From assembly GCA_964358205.1 (NCBI GenBank), contig CAYHNZ010000002.1, forward strand, positions 1 through 63,239: a DNA stretch of 63,239 nucleotides, given 5' to 3'. Position 1 is the first letter of the stretch; the number at the start of each line of letters is the position of its first letter. Positions 1,606 through 13,423 of this stretch are shown here, in pieces. Under the pieces are notes generated by a model, which saw nothing but the letters and a program-made list of their open reading frames with translations, was not told where the DNA came from and searched no databases. Source of the DNA: an uncultured Candidatus Saccharibacteria bacterium (GTDB taxonomy: Bacteria > Patescibacteriota > UBA1384 > 2-12-FULL-50-11). Made by a program: the position numbers and the translations under genes.

Positions 1606-2955
1606 ATGTTTCATATTTATAACTCCCTTTCAGGCAAGAAAGAAAAGTTTAAGTCGATAAAACCCAAAAAAGTGGGCATGTATGTTTGTGGGCCGACGGT
1701 TTACGACTACGGTCATGTCGGTCACGCCCGAACATATCTAACCTTCGACCTTCTCAACCGTTTTTTGAGCTTTCTTGGCTATAAAGTCAACTATATTCAG
1801 AACATTACCGACGTTGGACACCTGGTAGGGGATGCTGAAACAGGTACAGATAAGATAAAGAAGAAGGCCCAGGAGTCTGGCGAGAGTATTGGCGATATTG
1901 TGCGACATTATACCGAGGCACACCTGGAGGATCTAAAGTCTCTTAATATTATTGAACCAAGTAATTTACCCAAGGCGTCGGAACATATCGCTGATATAAT
2001 TGATTATATCAAGGACCTAATCGCCAAGGGATTTGCCTATGTAACCGAGGAGGGTAATGTTTACTTCAGCGTAAATAAAAAACCTGATTACGGTAAATTA
2101 AGTCGTCGGGGATTAGCGGAAATTCTTACTGGTACTCGGGTCGAGCCAGCCAAAGACAAGCGGATTGCGGCCGATTTTGCACTGTGGAAAACCAGTCTCC
2201 ACCTGGCAGGTGGAGGCGGTATGGCCGAGTTGGTCTGGGATTCGCCTTGGGGTAAGGGTTTCCCGGGTTGGCACATCGAATGTTCGGTGATGAGCCAGAA
2301 ATATCTCGGTGATACTTTTGATATTCATGGTGCGGCTGTTGAGCATGTCTTTCCTCATCACGAGAACGAGATTGCCCAAGCCGAAGCTAAAACCGGCCAA
2401 CCATTAGCCAATTACTGGGTTCATTCCGGCATGTTGACCATCAACGGCCGGAAGATGAGTAAATCGCTTGGTAACACCATTCGCGTTCCCGACGCCCTCA
2501 AGGATTATTCGGCCAATGAAATCCGCCTGGCTTTTTATCTTACTCCCTATCGCCAGCCGTTCGACTACACTCGAGAATCAATGACTCAAGGGGTAGTGCT
2601 TCGCTCCAAACTCTTTAACGCTTATCTGATCGCTAAAGCCGAAGGTGACGAAGGGAGATTAACAGAGGTAATTGACACTCTCGCCGATGATCTAGACACC
2701 CACCGAGCCCTAGACCTGTGGTTAGAGTACGCAGGTAGCTTAAGCAAAGAGCAGTTTGAAAAGCTGTTTGAGATCTTCGGCCTCAAGTTCACCGCCATTG
2801 AAGATAATCCCCAGGCGAAGAAACTAGCCGACGAACGAGAAGAAGCTCGAGCCAAAAAAGACTTCCTCACGGCCGACAACCGCCGTCAAGAGATCGAACA
2901 GCTTGGTTACGAAGTTCTAGACTCGGATTCCGGCACTCGCTACATCCCGCGTTAA
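1606..2955 (+). CDS. cysS: Cysteine--tRNA ligase
   Basis: Class I synthetase motifs HVGHARTY (HIGH) and KMSKS. The CGPTVYD N-terminus is typical of CysRS. ATG at 1606 follows GAGAG. Confidence 0.95.
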   Translation: MFHIYNSLSGKKEKFKSIKPKKVGMYVCGPTVYDYGHVGHARTYLTFDLLNRFLSFLGYKVNYIQNITDVGHLVGDAETGTDKIKKKAQESGESIGDIVRHYTEAHLEDLKSLNIIEPSNLPKASEHIADIIDYIKDLIAKGFAYVTEEGNVYFSVNKKPDYGKLSRRGLAEILTGTRVEPAKDKRIAADFALWKTSLHLAGGGGMAELVWDSPWGKGFPGWHIECSVMSQKYLGDTFDIHGAAVEHVFPHHENEIAQAEAKTGQPLANYWVHSGMLTINGRKMSKSLGNTIRVPDALKDYSANEIRLAFYLTPYRQPFDYTRESMTQGVVLRSKLFNAYLIAKAEGDEGRLTEVIDTLADDLDTHRALDLWLEYAGSLSKEQFEKLFEIFGLKFTAIEDNPQAKKLADEREEARAKKDFLTADNRRQEIEQLGYEVLDSDSGTRYIPR

Positions 2956-2993
2956 GTTTAGGGGTGGGATATAATAGGAATCATTTCCATACT

Positions 2994-3028
2994 TGAAAAT
3001 TGTAAACTGAAAATTGATAATTGCCGAC
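2994..3028. repeat. Degenerate heptanucleotide array (5 units)
   Basis: TGAAAAT TGTAAAC TGAAAAT TGATAAT TGCCGAC, read directly. Confidence 0.8.
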
Positions 3029-3065
3029 GATTTGTCGGTAGCATATACTTTACGCCTGAAAACCA

Positions 3066-3094
3066 TTGACAAACCTTTGATATTCCGGTATATT
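3066..3094 (+). promoter_or_regulatory. Near-consensus sigma70-type promoter of the GC-rich secreted-protein operon
   Basis: TTGACA (3066-3071), a 17-nt spacer, then TATATT (3089-3094). Confidence 0.6.
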
Positions 3095-3123
3095 CCGACC
3101 GTACGTTAAGCGACTGAATTGTC

Positions 3124-3221
3124 GGCGCTGTCTCGGCTGGGATTTGGGAGAGCCGTCACATGAGTTGCTCTAGGGCTTCTCGACGGTTTCCCTCCTTCCC
3201 TTTTCCTGGCTGAGACAGCGC
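3124..3221 (+). promoter_or_regulatory. Structured 5' leader with a long-range helix
   Basis: 3125-3140 pairs with 3205-3221 over about 17 bp. Three of the pairs are G-U and form only in the plus-sense RNA. A GCCCC/GGGGC hairpin (3277-3290) abuts the GAGGTGA ribosome-binding site. Confidence 0.5.
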
Positions 3222-3303
3222 TGATAGTTTACGGACGCCAACGCGTTTATTTACAATTAGTTCGAAAACATGCATTGCCCCGAACGGGGCGAGGTGAAAC
3301 AAG

Positions 3304-4221
3304 ATGAAAAAACTCTGGTTATTCGTCGTCTTCGCCCTCGCGCTGGTTTCACCAGCGTACGGGGGACACTACGTCCTGAAATACGAGAGCAAGGGAATCG
3401 TTTCCCTAGCTCTCGACGACTCAAGAAGCGGTTCGGTAGAACTGATTTTTCAGCTCCTACCGCTGACTGGCGATTACTCGCCAGGCGCAGCCATAGTCAG
3501 ACTCGACGGTCAGCCAATCTGGCAGACTGACGGGTCGAGCTACCTAGGGAGCGTGACAATCCCCGAAACCGGGGAGATTCCCGTCCTAGACGGGACGAAA
3601 TTGCTTGTCCCAAACGTCAAACAGCCAAAGGCAGCTCCTATTCAAGTGAGCCGTCGTTGGTTTCTAGTCAAGCACCAGATTGAGGTTTACTTCTTGGCCA
3701 CAGATGGCCGGGGGAGATCCGACAAGAACCACTCTGCGGCGCCAGCGACGCAGTTCACGATCGAACCGATCGATCCGCCAACGGCGGCAACAACTCTTAG
3801 CGGTAGTCCGCTATCGGCCGATCAGCTCGACGCTGTGATCAAACAGTCTTACGAGCAGGGTGCCGTCGCGGGCAAAACTGCCTGGGAGAAGGAGCGTGAG
3901 CAACTTTTCGCCGAACTTCAAAAAGCGACTGACGAGCTCAACGAGCTTCGTCGAAAAGCTGCGACCCGGGGCGATTCCAAGCCAGGGGCGATGCCCTCGG
4001 CCGTTCGCTACCTGCCAGTTAAATGGGCACATCAAACTTGGCCGGAAGTTGGGGACGAAATGCTACTGGTTGATTCCAGAGGCAAAGTTGTTGCCAGGGC
4101 AAAGGTTGTTGAGGTTCTTCCTCAGCTCAGACGGATTTGGGTCTCCCTGACCCTTCCGATTGATTTCGACGTTCATCAGGGATATACGATCCAACGGCCG
4201 ACCGGCCGAGGAGACAAGTAA
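3304..4221 (+). CDS. Secreted hypothetical protein (GC-rich island)
   Basis: GAGGTGA ribosome-binding site. Signal peptide MKKLWLFVVFALALVSPAYG. Coiled-coil-like EKEREQLFAELQKATDELNELRRK. Confidence 0.8.
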   Translation: MKKLWLFVVFALALVSPAYGGHYVLKYESKGIVSLALDDSRSGSVELIFQLLPLTGDYSPGAAIVRLDGQPIWQTDGSSYLGSVTIPETGEIPVLDGTKLLVPNVKQPKAAPIQVSRRWFLVKHQIEVYFLATDGRGRSDKNHSAAPATQFTIEPIDPPTAATTLSGSPLSADQLDAVIKQSYEQGAVAGKTAWEKEREQLFAELQKATDELNELRRKAATRGDSKPGAMPSAVRYLPVKWAHQTWPEVGDEMLLVDSRGKVVARAKVVEVLPQLRRIWVSLTLPIDFDVHQGYTIQRPTGRGDK

Positions 4222-4222
4222 A

Positions 4223-5068
4223 GTGAAACTACTGAAAGTCATTCTCGCGGCACTGGTGGCCGCCCTCGTCGTTCCCGCCTTCGCGCAAGCGCAGGGCGGT
4301 TTCCTAGACCTAACCAAGGATCCCTTTATCGAAGGGGGTCTCAACGACACGATCGTCCAAGACGAGCTCCTTCCGGCGCTCAACGGGTTTGCTCCCAAGC
4401 TTAAGTCGGATGAAGCCTTCGCCTTCGCCTTCAATATGGACATCAAGAAGTTGCAAGTCGGATACCGGGACAAGAAAACCGGAAAGACCTATACAGCTTC
4501 TGGTTCTCTGCGGGCTGGCGAAAAAGTCCTGGGGACAATCGAATCACGCGAGGACATCGGCAACGGCACGGAAAAGCTGGTCGTTGTCGTTCGCTGGCTG
4601 TGGAAATGCGCCAACCCCCTCTTAATCCCTTTCAAGGTGATCCTCTACATTCCCAAGAGGCAGACTCTGGGGAAGACGATCATCCAGCGTATTGAGGTTC
4701 CCAGCCCATACGCAGTGAATGTCAAGGAGAACACGATCGTTCAGCAGATCGTCCCCTCGGTGGGGGATGTAGTGCTGAACGTCCCTGCTTCGCAAAGGGG
4801 GCGATATCGCCTTGTCGAGACCAGTCACGAAGAGGCCGGCCGAAGGCTCGAGTACCAGAAGAGCTGGTGGGACAATCTCCTCGACTTTTTAAAGGTCGTG
4901 GCGACTCCCATCGCCCAGATCCTCGGACGAACGAACATTAGTCTCAGCGCTACCGGTGGTGCTGGCGGAACGGCCTATGGCGGCAACGCCATTTCGTCAT
5001 CGTCATCGTCAGCCTCGGCTAGCGCTTCAGCCTCTGCGGCCGCTGCTGCGGCCGCCGGCGGCAACTAG
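4223..5068 (+). CDS. Secreted hypothetical protein with a Gly/Ser/Ala-rich C-terminus
   Basis: GTG at 4223 lies 9 nt after GAGGAG and 1 nt after the upstream stop. Signal peptide VKLLKVILAALVAALVVPAFAQA. Confidence 0.75.
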   Translation: MKLLKVILAALVAALVVPAFAQAQGGFLDLTKDPFIEGGLNDTIVQDELLPALNGFAPKLKSDEAFAFAFNMDIKKLQVGYRDKKTGKTYTASGSLRAGEKVLGTIESREDIGNGTEKLVVVVRWLWKCANPLLIPFKVILYIPKRQTLGKTIIQRIEVPSPYAVNVKENTIVQQIVPSVGDVVLNVPASQRGRYRLVETSHEEAGRRLEYQKSWWDNLLDFLKVVATPIAQILGRTNISLSATGGAGGTAYGGNAISSSSSSASASASASAAAAAAAGGN

Positions 5069-5187
5069 CCACCAACCCAATCCTAACCAGGGGAAACTTG
5101 CTCATTCGCAGGTTTCCCCCATCCCTTCTTGAACTAACAGTCGAATTGGTTTAAGAAGTAGATGTAAGTTTAACAAAAAGGAGGAAT

Positions 5188-5754
5188 ATGAAATATTTCA
5201 TCTTTTCACTCATCGCGCTGGCGATTGCTTTCGCAACTCCCGGTGTGATAGTGGCTTCTAGCTCAAGCTCAAGTTCATCTTCAGCTTCGAGCTCAGCTGC
5301 GGCTTCAGCTTCAGTTGGTGGCGGTTCGGCTTCGGCCGGTGCCGGTGCCAGCTCCGGTGCTGGTGCTGCCAGCTCGTCTGGTAATAATTCGTCTGGGTCA
5401 ACCAGTTCGTCTAGTTCCAGTTCGAGCTCCAGCGCTAGTTCGAGCGCTGCTGCTTCCGCAACTAGCGGTAACAAAACTGTTACTGCTGACAGCGTGAAGA
5501 ATTGCACGAGCGCTTCGGCCGGTAGTGCCGCTGGTTCGGGTGCAGCTGCTTCGGCATCTGCTTCTACCAGCTCGGCCGCTAGTGCCGCTGCGGCTACCAA
5601 CTGTCCGAAGACTGTCGTTACGACAGTCAAGACAGTTAAGTCGTTGCCTGCAACTGGTGCCGAAACGGTCCTATTGCCCGGTGCGTTAAGCGCCTTTGCC
5701 CTTGCGGCCCGCAAATTTGCGATGGCCAAAAAGGAAGCTGCTCTCTTAGCCTAA
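5188..5754 (+). CDS. LPXTG-anchored Ser/Ala-rich surface protein
   Basis: AAGGAGG ribosome-binding site and a signal peptide. The C-terminal LPATG is followed by a hydrophobic stretch and a basic tail, which is a sortase sorting signal. Confidence 0.8.
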   Translation: MKYFIFSLIALAIAFATPGVIVASSSSSSSSSASSSAAASASVGGGSASAGAGASSGAGAASSSGNNSSGSTSSSSSSSSSSASSSAAASATSGNKTVTADSVKNCTSASAGSAAGSGAAASASASTSSAASAAAATNCPKTVVTTVKTVKSLPATGAETVLLPGALSAFALAARKFAMAKKEAALLA

Positions 5755-5777
5755 CGGTTAAGAAAGTCGCGAGAAAA

Positions 5778-5798
5778 AGACCCGCAAGGGTCTTTTTC
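5778..5798 (+). terminator. Intrinsic terminator
   Basis: AGACCC-GCAA-GGGTCT hairpin followed by a T-run. Confidence 0.8.
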
Positions 5799-5842
5799 TT
5801 TAGACCCAAGATTTTTTGTTGGTTAACGGATACAATGGAGAC

Positions 5843-6832
5843 ATGAGCAATCAGGAACGAAAAGTGGAGTTAGCCGAAACTTTGCGGATTGACGAGAAGT
5901 CAGCGCGAATAAAGCAGATTGAGGCCGAGATGGCGACGCCGTCTTTTTGGCAAGAACACCAGCGAGCGGCTAAGCTAACCCAGGAGTTGAAGCATTTACA
6001 GGACTTTGTTGCTGAATTTGAGTCAGCCGAGACGGAAGCAGAACTAGAAGAGCTGGAAACCGAAGCGTTCTTTTCCGGCGACCACGACGATTCGTCTTGT
6101 TTTGTTGGCATTCACTCCGGTTCGGGCGGTGTCGATGCTCAAGATTGGGCGGAGATGTTAACTCGGATGTACACTCGCTACGGCGAAAGAGCCGACTACA
6201 AAGTAACCCTACTTGATCAAGCCGACGGCGAGGAAGCGGGGATTAAAAACGCGACCTTACTAATAGAAGGGTTCAGGGCATATGGCAAGCTTAAAGCCGA
6301 GAACGGCGTCCATCGATTAGTTCGAATTAGTCCCTTTGATGCTGCCAAAGCCAGGCACACCTCATTTGCCTTGGTGGAGGTCGTGCCGGAAGTAGCAGAC
6401 GCTCGAGAGGTCGAAATTAACACTGACGAAATCCGCATCGATGTTTACCGAGCCGGTGGCCGCGGTGGCCAGGGCGTTAACACTACCGATTCAGCTGTTC
6501 GAATAACTCACTTACCAACCAAGATTGTCGTTACCTGTCAAAACGAACGAAGCCAATTGCAAAATAAGGTCCAAGCGCTTAAAATTCTTCAGGGCAAGCT
6601 CCAATTACTTGATGACGAGAAGCGACGCATCGCCAACCAAAATCACAAGGGCGAGCCGGTCCTCGCCAGCTGGGGCAACCAAATCCGGTCGTATGTCTTA
6701 CAGCCATACCAGATGGTAAAAGATTTACGGAGCGGCTACGAAACATCTGGTGTCGATGATGTCCTTGATGGCCGTCTGGAGAATTTGATTAATGCTAACA
6801 TTAAACATTTTGCAAACTTAAAGAAAGGATAA
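5843..6832 (+). CDS. prfB: Peptide chain release factor 2
   Basis: SPF tripeptide (RISPFD) and GGQ motif (RGGQGVNTT). The ORF is continuous, so no +1 frameshift site is required. Confidence 0.9.
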   Translation: MSNQERKVELAETLRIDEKSARIKQIEAEMATPSFWQEHQRAAKLTQELKHLQDFVAEFESAETEAELEELETEAFFSGDHDDSSCFVGIHSGSGGVDAQDWAEMLTRMYTRYGERADYKVTLLDQADGEEAGIKNATLLIEGFRAYGKLKAENGVHRLVRISPFDAAKARHTSFALVEVVPEVADAREVEINTDEIRIDVYRAGGRGGQGVNTTDSAVRITHLPTKIVVTCQNERSQLQNKVQALKILQGKLQLLDDEKRRIANQNHKGEPVLASWGNQIRSYVLQPYQMVKDLRSGYETSGVDDVLDGRLENLINANIKHFANLKKG

Positions 6833-10846: not shown

Positions 10847-13423
10847 TTACCAGTCGCCACCGGACGATGAGTCACCGCCTCCACCGAAGCTTCCACCGGA
10901 TGAGGAGTCTCCACCTCCGCCCCAGCTTCCGCCGGAGCCGCTGCTTCCCCATGAGCTACTCGTGCTGCTCTCGTAGGAAGATTGACGTTGCCGTTCATCT
11001 TCTTCTTCACGTCGCCGTTTGGCGGCGGCTTCTTGTGCTTGTCGTTGCCTTTCCTCTTCCTCATAAGCGCGCTGAGCCTTGCGGGCCTCGCCTTCCCATG
11101 AAGATTCGTTTTGGTCGAGTAGAGCAAGAAGCACCACGTAGTCGGTGACGTCGCTGATCTGGGGCTGGTTAAAGCCCTTAAGTGTTAGAGAGCCGCCGTA
11201 TTCCTCGATCTTGCGTTGATAGCTGTCGCGTAGCGACTTCATCTTCGCAACGCGCTTCTCGAACTCGGCCTTCTTCTGGTCGAGCTCGTCGCAGTGACGA
11301 ACTGACCGCTTCGCCTGTTCGAGCGCTGAACTGAACTTTTCCAGCGCCCAGTCGGCGTTGTTGCGAGCGTTAAGGTGTCGGTTCTCGCCAAGCTGGCGCC
11401 TGGCTTTGTCCAGATCGCGCTTACCTTCGCTCAAGTGGCTTTCGGCAGCGCCGACAAAACCAGTCTGAACTTTAGCATGTACTTTCTGAGCATTAGTGAG
11501 ATGTAGGGTGGCAGCAGTGATCGCCTCGGTCGCTTCTGCTAACTTCGTCTCGGCCTTGGTGACGGAGTCTTGAGCGCCTTTGATAGCGCTCGTGATCGTC
11601 GCCGCTTGGTCGGCGGCCTTTGTGTAGAGCTCGTTTACCTTCCCGGCCTGCGCTTCAACCTCTGCGACGTCATCGGCACTTGCAAGGGTTCCCGCAAGCT
11701 TGTCCTCTGCGCGTCGGCCCAAATTGAAGGTAATGGTCGGGTCATCGTCAGGGTCGACGACGGTGTGAAGAGCTTCAGGCTGTGAGTCCATTCGGTTCGA
11801 ACGGGCGAGTGCGATCGCGTCAACCAATCGGTTGAATCGGTCGACGACGGTCTGCTCGGCCGAGTGAAGCTCGTTGAGTCGTTCGACGTAGGCTATAGGG
11901 TCGTCCCATGATAGGGCGTTAACCGAAGCATACAGGGAACTGTCTTTTGAATCGTCACCCGCCAACGGATGGTTTTGCAACCAGCGTTGGGGGATACCGA
12001 GCTCTTTCGCTTTGGCGTAGAGCTCATCGAGCGTTTTGGACGGAAACGATTCTTCCGCCGTTTTGCCGCGAGCTGCGAGGGCGTCCTTTAGCTCCTGCCA
12101 ACCTTCGACGTTTTGCTCAAACCGCTTCGCAAGCGATGCGGCGAGTACGGTCGGGTTGATCTTGATGACCTTAGTCTCCGGTTCGAATAGGCTGTCTTTA
12201 TTGACTTTACCGGTGTCGAAATCGAAGGGGCTGTTAAGCATCGCCAGAGCTGTGTTCAACGGTTTGAGGTTGAAGTAGCCGGCTTTCTTCGCCACAGCCT
12301 TGCACCTTTCGGCGTGGTCGCGTAGGGCTTCGACACCTAGGTAGATGTCATCAACCTCTTTGGTCACACTCTCGTAAGCTTCCTTGGTTTTTCCTTTCAC
12401 TGCTGTCAGAGCTAGGATATCACCGCGGTCGCCGTAGATTGCGAAGAACTGCTGAGCGGCATTGGTTGTCGCTTTTACTCGTTTTCCGAACTCCTCTGCG
12501 AACCTTTCCCGCAAATAGGAGTACCTGCGAAGTTGGGACAAAAAAGCCACAATCATTGCGACGAGTATGAGTATAGCCCATAGACATTTCAAGAAGATAT
12601 CCAGCTCACGACGAGCTTCTTCACTCATCCGGTCGCTGACGTAGCCTTCCAGCTTGTCAACGTCTGGCTTGAGTGCTGCTGCTGCGTTAAGCATCTCTTG
12701 GGGGTTGTTTCGTTGTCGAACCTTCCGTGCTTCGTCAAGGCTCTGTTTGTAGCCGCTGACATTGCCAGGCAGATACTCCCTGTGTCGAAGAAGTTCATCC
12801 AGTTTAGTTACCCGCTCGTTGATCAGTCCTTGCGCCTGAATCAGCCTTTCTTGCTCGGCCTGCCTTCTGGCAGCTTCGCGACGTTGGGCGATTTTGGCGG
12901 GGTCAGTCTGGTCGAACAGATAATCGTCGACGGCCCTCATCATGTTGATGATGCCGTTTTTCGGGTCCTTGCGTTGACCTTGAGTCGACGCCTTGAAGAC
13001 GTCGGTATACTGATCGTGCGCGCGGCTTCGAAAGTTGAGTTCGGTCTCAAATTTACTCCCAGCCAGGAAGCGATACTTCCGTGGACTGTAAGCAAGCAAG
13101 AAGATCTGCGACCTCGCCATGTCAAACGACGGATAGCGCTGACCCCACTGTTGAGCAAGGTTGTTGATGGCGTTAGCCGCCAATTGATCGCCATCGCCAG
13201 AACCCGGTAGGGTTTCGACGAGAATCACGTAGTAGGGGAAGTGGCAGCTTTTCGCCGCCCTTTCGATTTCGTCAATCCCGTTGTTGCCGATCATCGGCGG
13301 GTTGAACCCTTCGGGAATCGTGTAGACGAACTGGCCCTCGCGTAAAGCAGGGACATTGAGTTGGGCGCACGCAATTCCGTTGAAAAGCGTAGCGACAAGG
13401 ACGAGTAAGAAACGCATTTTCAT
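10847..13423 (-). CDS. TPM-domain (YgcG-like) membrane protein with a long coiled-coil insert (GC-rich cargo gene)
   Basis: AGGTGA ribosome-binding site and a signal peptide. TPM-like PYYVILVETLPG...IFLLAYSPRKYRFLAG. One TM helix, a coiled-coil region of about 480 aa, and a Gly/Ser-rich ...GGGGDSSSGGDW tail typical of TPM proteins. Confidence 0.85.
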   Translation of the reverse strand: MKMRFLLVLVATLFNGIACAQLNVPALREGQFVYTIPEGFNPPMIGNNGIDEIERAAKSCHFPYYVILVETLPGSGDGDQLAANAINNLAQQWGQRYPSFDMARSQIFLLAYSPRKYRFLAGSKFETELNFRSRAHDQYTDVFKASTQGQRKDPKNGIINMMRAVDDYLFDQTDPAKIAQRREAARRQAEQERLIQAQGLINERVTKLDELLRHREYLPGNVSGYKQSLDEARKVRQRNNPQEMLNAAAALKPDVDKLEGYVSDRMSEEARRELDIFLKCLWAILILVAMIVAFLSQLRRYSYLRERFAEEFGKRVKATTNAAQQFFAIYGDRGDILALTAVKGKTKEAYESVTKEVDDIYLGVEALRDHAERCKAVAKKAGYFNLKPLNTALAMLNSPFDFDTGKVNKDSLFEPETKVIKINPTVLAASLAKRFEQNVEGWQELKDALAARGKTAEESFPSKTLDELYAKAKELGIPQRWLQNHPLAGDDSKDSSLYASVNALSWDDPIAYVERLNELHSAEQTVVDRFNRLVDAIALARSNRMDSQPEALHTVVDPDDDPTITFNLGRRAEDKLAGTLASADDVAEVEAQAGKVNELYTKAADQAATITSAIKGAQDSVTKAETKLAEATEAITAATLHLTNAQKVHAKVQTGFVGAAESHLSEGKRDLDKARRQLGENRHLNARNNADWALEKFSSALEQAKRSVRHCDELDQKKAEFEKRVAKMKSLRDSYQRKIEEYGGSLTLKGFNQPQISDVTDYVVLLALLDQNESSWEGEARKAQRAYEEEERQRQAQEAAAKRRREEEDERQRQSSYESSTSSSWGSSGSGGSWGGGGDSSSGGSFGGGGDSSSGGDW

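Follow-up and report, generated by a model that had tools for sequence, protein, structure and literature searches.

Is a block of GC-rich genes for secreted proteins, set between two housekeeping genes of an uncultured Candidatus Saccharibacteria bacterium, a piece of foreign DNA, or does it belong to the lineage in which it is found? The question arises from a stretch of 63,239 nucleotides (nt) of contig CAYHNZ010000002.1 (assembly GCA_964358205.1), called here the window, where a promoter, a leader, three genes (g1, g2 and g3, referred to below as A, B and C) and a terminator follow one another on the plus strand between cysS (1552–2955) and prfB (5843–6832). An earlier note on this DNA had taken the block as one promoter–leader–three-gene–terminator unit for secreted proteins, with a guanine-plus-cytosine (GC) content and a codon choice of its own, and had suggested that it was acquired from a high-GC host or neighbour. 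The unit was read correctly, and its origin was not: the locus is ancestral and fixed in its clade rather than imported. Its most conserved part is the leader, with which we begin.

The leader core is a structured RNA. With the end of the −10 element at 3094 and the ATG of gene A at 3304, the leader has a length of about 200 nt, as proposed before, and its 109-nt core (3119–3227, plus strand) is far more conserved than the proteins. The arms of a long helix occupy 3117–3149 and 3197–3229; within them, a stem that we call P1 pairs 3119–3142 with 3204–3227 over 24 bp, and the inner part of P1 (GGCUGGGA/UCCUGGCU) contains invariant tandem G–U pairs. The core further comprises a U-rich internal loop, a helix in which GGGAGAG (3146–3152) pairs with part of the tract 3187–3207 (UUUCCCUCCUUCCCU, containing CCUCCUU) and a variable hairpin, P2, spanning 3153–3186. 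The earlier note had described the long helix as specific for the plus strand. The fold energies agree, being −91.2 kcal/mol (z −5.6) for the plus strand and −66.3 kcal/mol (z −2.4) for the minus strand, and the covariance model scores the two strands at 117.6 and 33.3 bits, respectively.

Covariation leads to the same structure. RNAalifold recovered the same P1 from MAFFT alignments of 6 and 28 sequences, with 13 and 19 compensated pairs, respectively. Among 27 sequences aligned to the model, 94% of the alignment cells pair, and 28 of the 40 pairs change on both sides; compensated cells number 183, against 55.8 ± 7.2 in shuffles (none of the 500 reached the observed value) and 19–42 in slid controls. 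A fitted alignment of this kind leans toward the structure, and the MAFFT result is independent of it. In long variants from other families (130–153 nt, mostly 144–153 nt), P1 and the core are retained, and 30 of the 43 pairs are compensated; a branched domain, one hairpin of which has the conserved loop CCCAUAAACAAUGUGGG, takes the place of P2. At the level of single genomes, GAG:CUC is changed to GCG:CGC in G022, and in the leader of G024 an additional hairpin interrupts the 3′ strand of P1.

Conserved features also surround the core. Upstream, a near-consensus sigma-70-type promoter, TTGACA-17-TATATT (3066–3094, plus strand), matches the consensus at 11 of 12 positions and is the best site in 2800–6000, just as had been claimed; promoter-like sites in the scanned region number seven, with 1.3 expected from shuffles. 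Sites of the form TTGAC(A/T)-17-TAnnnT stand at the equivalent place in most members of the family and in family f34. Transcription would start near 3101, where the minimum-free-energy fold places a mini-hairpin (3101–3115, plus strand) holding the motif CGUACGUUAAGCG. In the family of the window (f1), this motif is kept behind the −10 element; GUACAUUA is seen in other families. Downstream of the core, we read by eye a hairpin, P3 (GGACGC-CAAC-GCGUUU), followed by UUUACA (3250–3255), the whole spanning 3233–3255 on the plus strand; most loci have ACGCG(U) and UU(U/G/A)ACA in the stretch that separates the core from the Shine–Dalgarno (SD) sequence. Closer to gene A, a GC-rich hairpin predicted at 3275–3292 abuts the SD sequence GAGGUG at 3291–3296 (together 3275–3296, plus strand). 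It occurs only with cassettes of type I (see below), and in G014 it is present in a compensated version, CUCCCA...UGGGAG. Two other readings of this region were discarded: TTTACA or TTGACA after the core is not followed by a −10 element at 16–18 nt in any locus, as a second promoter would be, and a leader peptide that starts with the ATG at 3270 is not conserved, its frame differing from that of gene A in the window and agreeing with it in G005.

How far does this RNA extend? A first model (R1) found the leader in 17 of the 19 genomes of the family, including all 13 of high quality, with one locus each. A second model (R2) found it in 85 of 151 genomes of the class, normally again with one locus each, and returned nothing from 144 other Patescibacteria; in every case, the genomes that were searched sample their groups. 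When the filters were switched off, weak and divergent copies appeared in two cassette-bearing genomes that R2 had scored negative, and a third was visible by eye, so that 85 of 151 is a lower bound. In Rfam 15, no family matched: cmscan of 2900–5900 at E ≤ 10 gave only chance microRNA and small-RNA matches far below gathering scores, and eight other element-bearing loci showed no match on the element at E ≤ 0.1. The core is an uncatalogued RNA family restricted to this class, the records of which are filed under Berkelbacteria, Saccharimonadales or Saccharibacteria. These labels conflict, near relatives of the window being called Saccharimonadales or Saccharibacteria and other members Berkelbacteria; the RF2 proteins of two class members are identical to those of Berkelbacteria GW2011_GWE1_39_12 and GWB1_38_5. 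A metagenome scan with the pattern GGCTGGGAN{3,5}GGAGAG returned at least 120 stretches; none of the 80 that were fetched matched R2, and we therefore regard the stretches from this pattern scan as chance matches. Our literature search found no prior description of Saccharibacteria with a surface layer (S-layer), sortase/LPXTG proteins or a structured RNA.

The genes around the RNA tell whether the locus is old or new. The initial sample was a protein search of 40 relatives, in which homologues of gene A occurred in six other genomes; the order cysS–A–B–C–prfB was identical in the five of these six that share the family, representing four other genera. With the leader RNA as a probe, 45 further loci were fetched across the class, and nearly all of them follow a common plan. 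Upstream lies cysS or a tRNA-dihydrouridine-synthase-like (dusB-like) gene, then the RNA; downstream come one or two GC-rich genes for secreted proteins, a protein with an LPxTG-like C-terminus, prfB, ybaB and pth. The first open reading frame (ORF) past the leader is signal-peptide-like in 42 of 45 loci, compared with 146 of 609 ORFs genome-wide by the same heuristic, a comparison between related genomes that is descriptive. Flanking direct repeats, tRNA genes and mobility genes were looked for at the locus, and none was found. It is the recurrence of the order cysS–leader–A–B–C–prfB across the class, with the unit at the same site in dozens of genera, that leads us to consider the locus ancestral. 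In G019 (L217, G019:C1, cysS to prfB), A, B and the leader are missing, and a C-like anchor gene (…SLPPAGGESFGLGFVLSLMSALIVTTRKLLARQRRILGRLTH) stands behind a plain promoter; this arrangement is a natural minimal form of the locus.

What moves horizontally is the A–B module, and it moves among members of the clade. All-against-all BLAST divides the A proteins of the family into at least four unrelated types, which are mixed within genera (three types in one genus and two in each of two others), and the type of B tracks the type of A. The same-genus genomes G000, to which the window belongs, and G005 both carry type I. They share 86% identity in CysS (61–67% with other genera) and 94% in RF2, but only 48% in A and 51% in B; moreover, their A and B proteins are each nearer to those of a genome from another genus (53–60%), and the nearest partners of A and B differ. 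Similarity patterns of A and B disagree with those of the flanking genes. At the nucleotide level, the two genomes are about 80–90% identical in cysS, the promoter, the leader and prfB, and 35–65% identical from 3243 to about 5760. The restriction of the SD-proximal hairpin to type-I cassettes puts the upstream breakpoint between the leader core and the ribosome-binding site. The pattern is that of a surface-antigen cassette exchanged through recombination between conserved arms. Of the horizontal acquisition proposed earlier, the movement itself holds, as replacement of A–B within the clade, and a high-GC donor is not supported.

Gene A (3304–4221, plus strand) encodes a secreted protein of 305 amino acids (aa), for which the structure model (predicted local distance difference test, pLDDT, 74) proposes an immunoglobulin (Ig)-like beta-sandwich, a long helix of 50 residues and a small beta-barrel. 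Foldseek returned nothing for this model from the PDB at E ≤ 1e-3, only generic Ig/fibronectin-type-III-like sandwiches. Gene B (4223–5068, plus strand) has a GTG start 1 nt past the stop of A and encodes a secreted protein of 281 aa with a Ser/Ala/Gly tail; its AlphaFold model (pLDDT 42) is unusable. Gene C (5188–5754, plus strand) combines a putative signal peptide, a Ser/Ala-rich low-complexity region, LPATG, a hydrophobic segment and an RK...KKEAALLA tail. Each of the three has a hydrophobic, signal-peptide-like N-terminus, judged by eye and with a simple heuristic; that of C is MKYFIFSLIALAIAFATPGVIVA. No Pfam (E ≤ 1) or NCBIfam (E ≤ 0.01) domain was found in any of them, in line with the earlier remark that none could be named. 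Relatives are few: when 1.84 billion representative proteins were searched exhaustively with a profile, 29 clusters came up for A, and a word-indexed search of 5.8 billion proteins gave 8 relatives of B. Neither search revealed a homologue of A or B outside the lineage, and no donor is visible. Searching genomes for related loci with B alone returned nothing, and with an alignment of B only the five loci already known.

Gene C had been proposed as a sortase substrate, with the presence of a sortase named as a check, and the genome fits this proposal. The C-terminus of C reads LPATG-AETVLLPGALSAFALAA-RKFAMAKKEAALLA, with a hydrophobic stretch of 17 residues; no second C-terminus of the LPxTG type was found in the genome. 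One sortase gene is present (C19:16733-17125), matching PF04203 with 94.1 bits and TIGR01076 with 59.3 bits (cut-off 39.35); it carries the catalytic-cysteine motif TLITC and is not assignable to classes A–F. These sequences make C a plausible substrate of the single sortase, which probably links it to the wall. A signal-peptide-like N-terminus, LPATG, a hydrophobic stretch, basic residues and a single sortase gene are all reminiscent of the LPXTG substrates of Gram-positive bacteria. Unlike in those substrates, the motif varies among relatives (LPATG, LPAAG, LPKAG, LPKTG, LPQAG), the basic residues are followed by a conserved tail of 10–12 residues (ARKEAALLA), C does not match the curated anchor models and the sortase has no assignable class. 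The C-terminal tail is kept across the family f1. For A and B, the secretion signals, the anchored partner, the hypervariability and the expression signals suggest a role in a coat or in contact with a host.

On balance, we favour the interpretation that this is the fixed ancestral surface locus of the clade, in which a conserved leader and the anchor protein C accompany an exchangeable A–B pair, and in which the leader works constitutively and in cis for an S-layer-like coat. The near-consensus promoter and the structured 5′ leader would drive the surface operon, and recombination would exchange A and B together, as one module, from lineage to lineage. The diverged island is bounded on one side by the conserved leader and on the other by gene C/prfB, and these could be the homology arms. 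The leader would then be a constitutive element and not a switch operated by a ligand. Its mini-hairpin and the 24-bp rod of P1 may shield the 5′ end of the mRNA, while the invariant core (the tandem G–U helix, the U-rich loop and the purine/pyrimidine helix) may be a specific site for docking or processing, used by a protein, by RNase III or by the ribosome. The outcome would be a long-lived and heavily translated mRNA for the coat. In mRNA decay of the Bacillus type, 5′-proximal structures protect mRNAs, and the genome has enzymes of this type, namely RNase III, RNase J and RNase Y; RNase E/G was not found in it. The 24 bp of P1 and the roughly −60 kcal/mol of the core leave little room for the labile P1 of riboswitches, and thus a constitutive element is favoured. 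In turn, the approximately 35 invariant nt argue for a specific partner, be it a protein, RNase III or the ribosome.

Several observations weigh against this interpretation. A plain stabiliser would not need some 35 invariant nt. The codon bias of the cassette runs opposite to that of the ribosomal-protein and EF-Tu genes and is hence not the usual signature of high expression. In A, B and C, neither S-layer, SLH or CWB2 domains nor any other known domain came up in Pfam and NCBIfam, and Foldseek found nothing significant for the model of A; C, without a match to the curated LPXTG-anchor models, has an unusual extension of 12 residues past its basic residues. One genome, G132 (L086, G132:C55:4769-4868), keeps the leader and has no secreted cassette before prfB. 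Second, miniature copies of the RNA, 75 nt long, exist in G042 (L085, G042:C3:19415-19489) and in G059 (G059:C52:5591-5665). Finally, related genomes are not independent samples, and all our counts overstate the statistical support. Beyond the preferred interpretation, it is tempting to go one step further and suppose that the leader is a new RNA–protein or RNA–ribosome control element dedicated to a single coat locus, that A–B is a hypervariable coat or host-contact determinant swapped like a serotype cassette, and that selection on the mRNA holds the GC content at third codon positions (GC3) of the cassette near 0.65 while genome GC ranges from 36% to 65%. We offer this extended version as a tentative speculation, and we would not expect it to hold in full.

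Among known systems, the leaders of Lactobacillus S-layer genes are the closest functional analogue. In lactobacilli, S-layer genes have strong promoters, long stabilising structured 5′ untranslated regions (UTRs) and biased codons, and the structure of the 5′ UTR accounts for mRNA half-lives of about 15 min (PMC3666127). For the slpA leaders of Lactobacillus acidophilus and L. crispatus, the likeness to our locus lies in an efficient promoter, a long stable 5′ UTR, a bias in codon use and, as the product of a single locus, a surface protein that is secreted and highly variable. Of the traits of an S-layer locus, the window has the strong promoter, the long structured 5′ UTR, the biased codons and the terminator, except that the direction of the codon bias differs from that of ribosomal proteins. 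There is no homology in sequence or structure between the two kinds of leaders, and about 35 nt are invariant across families in ours; our locus is a three-gene operon with a sortase-type anchor and no SLH or other S-layer anchoring domain.

For the exchange of the module, a likeness may be seen in the variable S-layer cassette of Clostridioides difficile, where the slpA region is exchanged between lineages by homologous recombination. There, too, a surface module at a fixed site between conserved flanks has unrelated alleles across lineages, with trees incongruent with the core genome. The differences are that phylum and proteins are others, that the 5′ boundary in our case is a conserved RNA leader and that our module keeps its own GC3. 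In the 5′ stabilisers of Gram-positive bacteria (aprE, ermC and the STAB-SD of cryIIIA), a start-proximal stem–loop or an SD-like sequence guards the transcript against decay from the 5′ end by RNase J/Y. Our genome, with RNase J/Y and without RNase E/G, and our leader, with the SD look-alike GGGAGAG, would be comparable, although here the SD-like sequence is engaged in pairing within the rod, and the element far exceeds those stabilisers in size and conservation. Leader hairpins processed by RNase III are known from phage T7 (R1.1) and from the leaders of rnc and pnp. Our 5′ leader, with a helix of at least 20 bp that a small internal loop interrupts, would suit this group, and RNase III is encoded in the genome, but RNase III sites are not normally so conserved in sequence.

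The main rival to a constitutive leader is a regulatory switch, that is, a riboswitch-like or protein-operated sensor that would act by freeing or hiding the SD sequence or through the weak hairpin and U-run at 3233–3255. We think it improbable, yet it deserves to be weighed. The high conservation of internal nucleotides would suit a sensor, as would the additional junction and the hairpin with the conserved loop CCCAUAAACAAUGUGGG in the long variants and the ACGCG and UUUACA motifs conserved past the core. In the short form, moreover, the anti-SD look-alike CCUCCUU pairs with the SD look-alike GGGAGAG, and a hairpin touches the real SD sequence. Against this stands the solidity of the fold: P1 and the core have the length and energy given above, and no competing helix was found. 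CCUCC is lost in the long variants (CUCGCC, CUCUCC, CUCACC), and we have therefore rejected sequestration of the SD sequence by this motif as a universal mechanism; the SD-proximal hairpin tracks the type of cassette and not the core, and the stems of P3 have only 3–6 bp. In addition, the element has one gene context per genome, unlike metabolite riboswitches, and does not match any class in Rfam.

Could the hairpin, alternatively, be an independent small RNA gene of about 100–150 nt, acting in trans, excised from a leader or serving as a housekeeping RNA such as a divergent signal recognition particle (SRP) or 6S RNA? Normally one locus per genome with its own near-consensus promoter, a 4.5S-like size and a rod shape speak in its favour, as does the fact that G132 keeps the RNA without the cassette. 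The Rfam models of SRP RNA (RF00169, RF01854) and 6S RNA (RF00013) match nothing here or in 31 relatives, a result that counts on the same side. The same SRP models, though, match nothing in 81 genomes from the whole phylum, while the leader is confined to one class, so the two absences do not coincide. The apical part of the leader, where SRP RNA has the Ffh-binding domain IV, is variable in sequence and length and shows neither a GNRA nor an AGCA motif; the large central bubble of 6S RNA is lacking. No terminator separates the core from gene A, which follows on the same strand after 13–330 nt (511 nt in G060). We consider this explanation quite improbable, and an identity with SRP RNA was rejected: RF00169 and RF01854 had no match at the leader or elsewhere in the genome, and the apical hairpin is variable. 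A domain-IV-like candidate at C24:~13067 had no Rfam match either. As a separate observation, RF00169, RF01854 and RF00013 were blank in G000, in the 31 relatives and in the 81 Patescibacteria, while control genomes responded; the SRP RNA of the phylum is either very divergent or lost by the first-look filter of the search.

Next, base composition has to be considered, as it was the reason to suspect a foreign island in the first place. The genome (862,613 bases in 43 contigs) has a GC content of 0.478, and its 785 ORFs of at least 100 aa have a mean GC of 0.478 (standard deviation 0.036) and a mean GC3 at synonymous sites (GC3s) of 0.493 (standard deviation 0.065). With GC contents of 0.557, 0.576 and 0.561, genes A, B and C lie at percentiles 98.5–99.7 of the genome ORFs. 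GC3s is raised in A (0.58) and B (0.68) and ordinary in C (0.47), where the high GC is due to Ser/Ala codons (GC at second codon positions 0.74) and not to GC3. The cassette favours C- and G-ending codons and differs in this both from the genome and from a set of 27 ribosomal-protein and EF-Tu ORFs (GC3s 0.44). The high GC and the different codon choice reported before are, in short, real.

Across the class, however, this signature does not behave like that of a newcomer. The GC3 of gene A exceeds that of the flanking housekeeping genes in 39 of 43 loci (by 0.16 on average) and that of gene B in 32 of 39, while the anchored last gene is slightly below its flanks. In most loci, A and B have a GC3 of about 0.6–0.75, with flanks between 0.26 and 0.66. 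G024 (L216, G024:C1:79100-87200), a relative with high GC, shows the opposite: its flanks reach 0.83–0.87 and its cassette is lower, at 0.67–0.70. An offset that is kept in both directions over dozens of genera is not, in this case, a mark of recent foreign origin, and a composition so decoupled from the host genomes is a warning against taking GC deviation as evidence of a foreign donor. We discarded high-expression codon bias as the source of the raised GC3, as the GC3s of the ribosomal-protein and EF-Tu set is below the genome mean, and we consider GC-biased gene conversion unlikely as a sole cause, because the cassette of G024 falls under its flanks. The cause may be selection on mRNA or codons, or rapid turnover from a shared allele pool.

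That the three genes came in recently as an island from a host or neighbour of high GC, the kind of origin suggested in the earlier note, is very improbable. The atypical GC and codon use would be expected of such an island, and other GC-rich secreted genes of the window are lineage-specific, the one at 563–1462 being absent from G005. On the other side are the synteny of the locus across the class (45 or more loci), a cassette GC3 of about 0.6–0.7 irrespective of flank values between 0.26 and 0.87, the lack of homologues outside the lineage in the 1.84 and 5.8 billion proteins, the absence of repeats, tRNA and mobility genes and the native GC3 of gene C. Just as unlikely is an element acting at the level of DNA, an inverted repeat serving as a recombination anchor, cruciform or operator for the exchange of cassettes: it would account for the position of the repeat at the 5′ edge of the island of divergence and for its conservation while everything downstream is swapped, but the invariant G–U pairs would be A–C mismatches on the other strand, fold energy and model scores are strongly asymmetric between strands, the element lies downstream of the promoter in a fixed orientation to gene A, and acting as a homology arm could go along with an RNA function, to which it would be secondary.

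If the favoured reading of a clade-wide surface locus is correct, its interest goes beyond one genome. Cell surfaces in the Candidate Phyla Radiation (CPR) remain little known, and the presumed attached lifestyle of these bacteria depends on them; the locus is a class-wide candidate for their main variable surface structure, and it is marked by an easily searchable RNA that adds an uncatalogued family to the known structured RNAs. It might also offer a clean system in which to study the variation of the surface in reduced genomes and the part that mRNA leaders, decay enzymes (RNase J, Y and III) and recombination have in shaping it.

Some further features of the locus and its surroundings should be mentioned. 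The operon ends in an intrinsic terminator at 5774–5801 (plus strand), AAAAAGACCC-GCAA-GGGUCUUUUU followed by CUUU, with a 13-bp stem, −23.4 kcal/mol and z −5.0, which is the clean terminator described before. Between genes B and C, the spacer 5069–5187 folds with −41.2 kcal/mol (z −5.2) into two strong hairpins (5090–5160, plus strand), and a promoter-like site occupies 5170–5197; C may therefore have expression signals of its own or a processing site. In the miniature copies of the leader in G042 and G059, P2 is cut to a 4-bp GGGG-UUCA-CCCC stem–loop. No other copies were seen away from the surface locus, and the one in G042 lies after a thioredoxin-like ORF and before a helicase-like ORF of 968 aa.

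The other GC-rich genes for secreted proteins that had been pointed out in the window, at 563–1417 and 10847–13423, do share the signature, with a GC of 0.551 each and GC3s of 0.67 and 0.61, respectively. Both halves of the first of them, 563–1462 on the minus strand as we delimit it, are Nfu_N-like (Pfam PF08712, E 1.3e-12). This gene is missing from G005 of the same genus, which has 148 nt between the zinc-ribbon gene and cysS; it is therefore an insertion specific to this genome. High GC is also found in purine-biosynthesis-like genes elsewhere in the genome (C15:9550-14471 and C29:9705-10376; GC 0.54–0.56, GC3 up to 0.71), which, judged by their N-terminal sequences, are PurH-like, SAICAR-synthase-like, adenylosuccinate-lyase-like and PurN-like.

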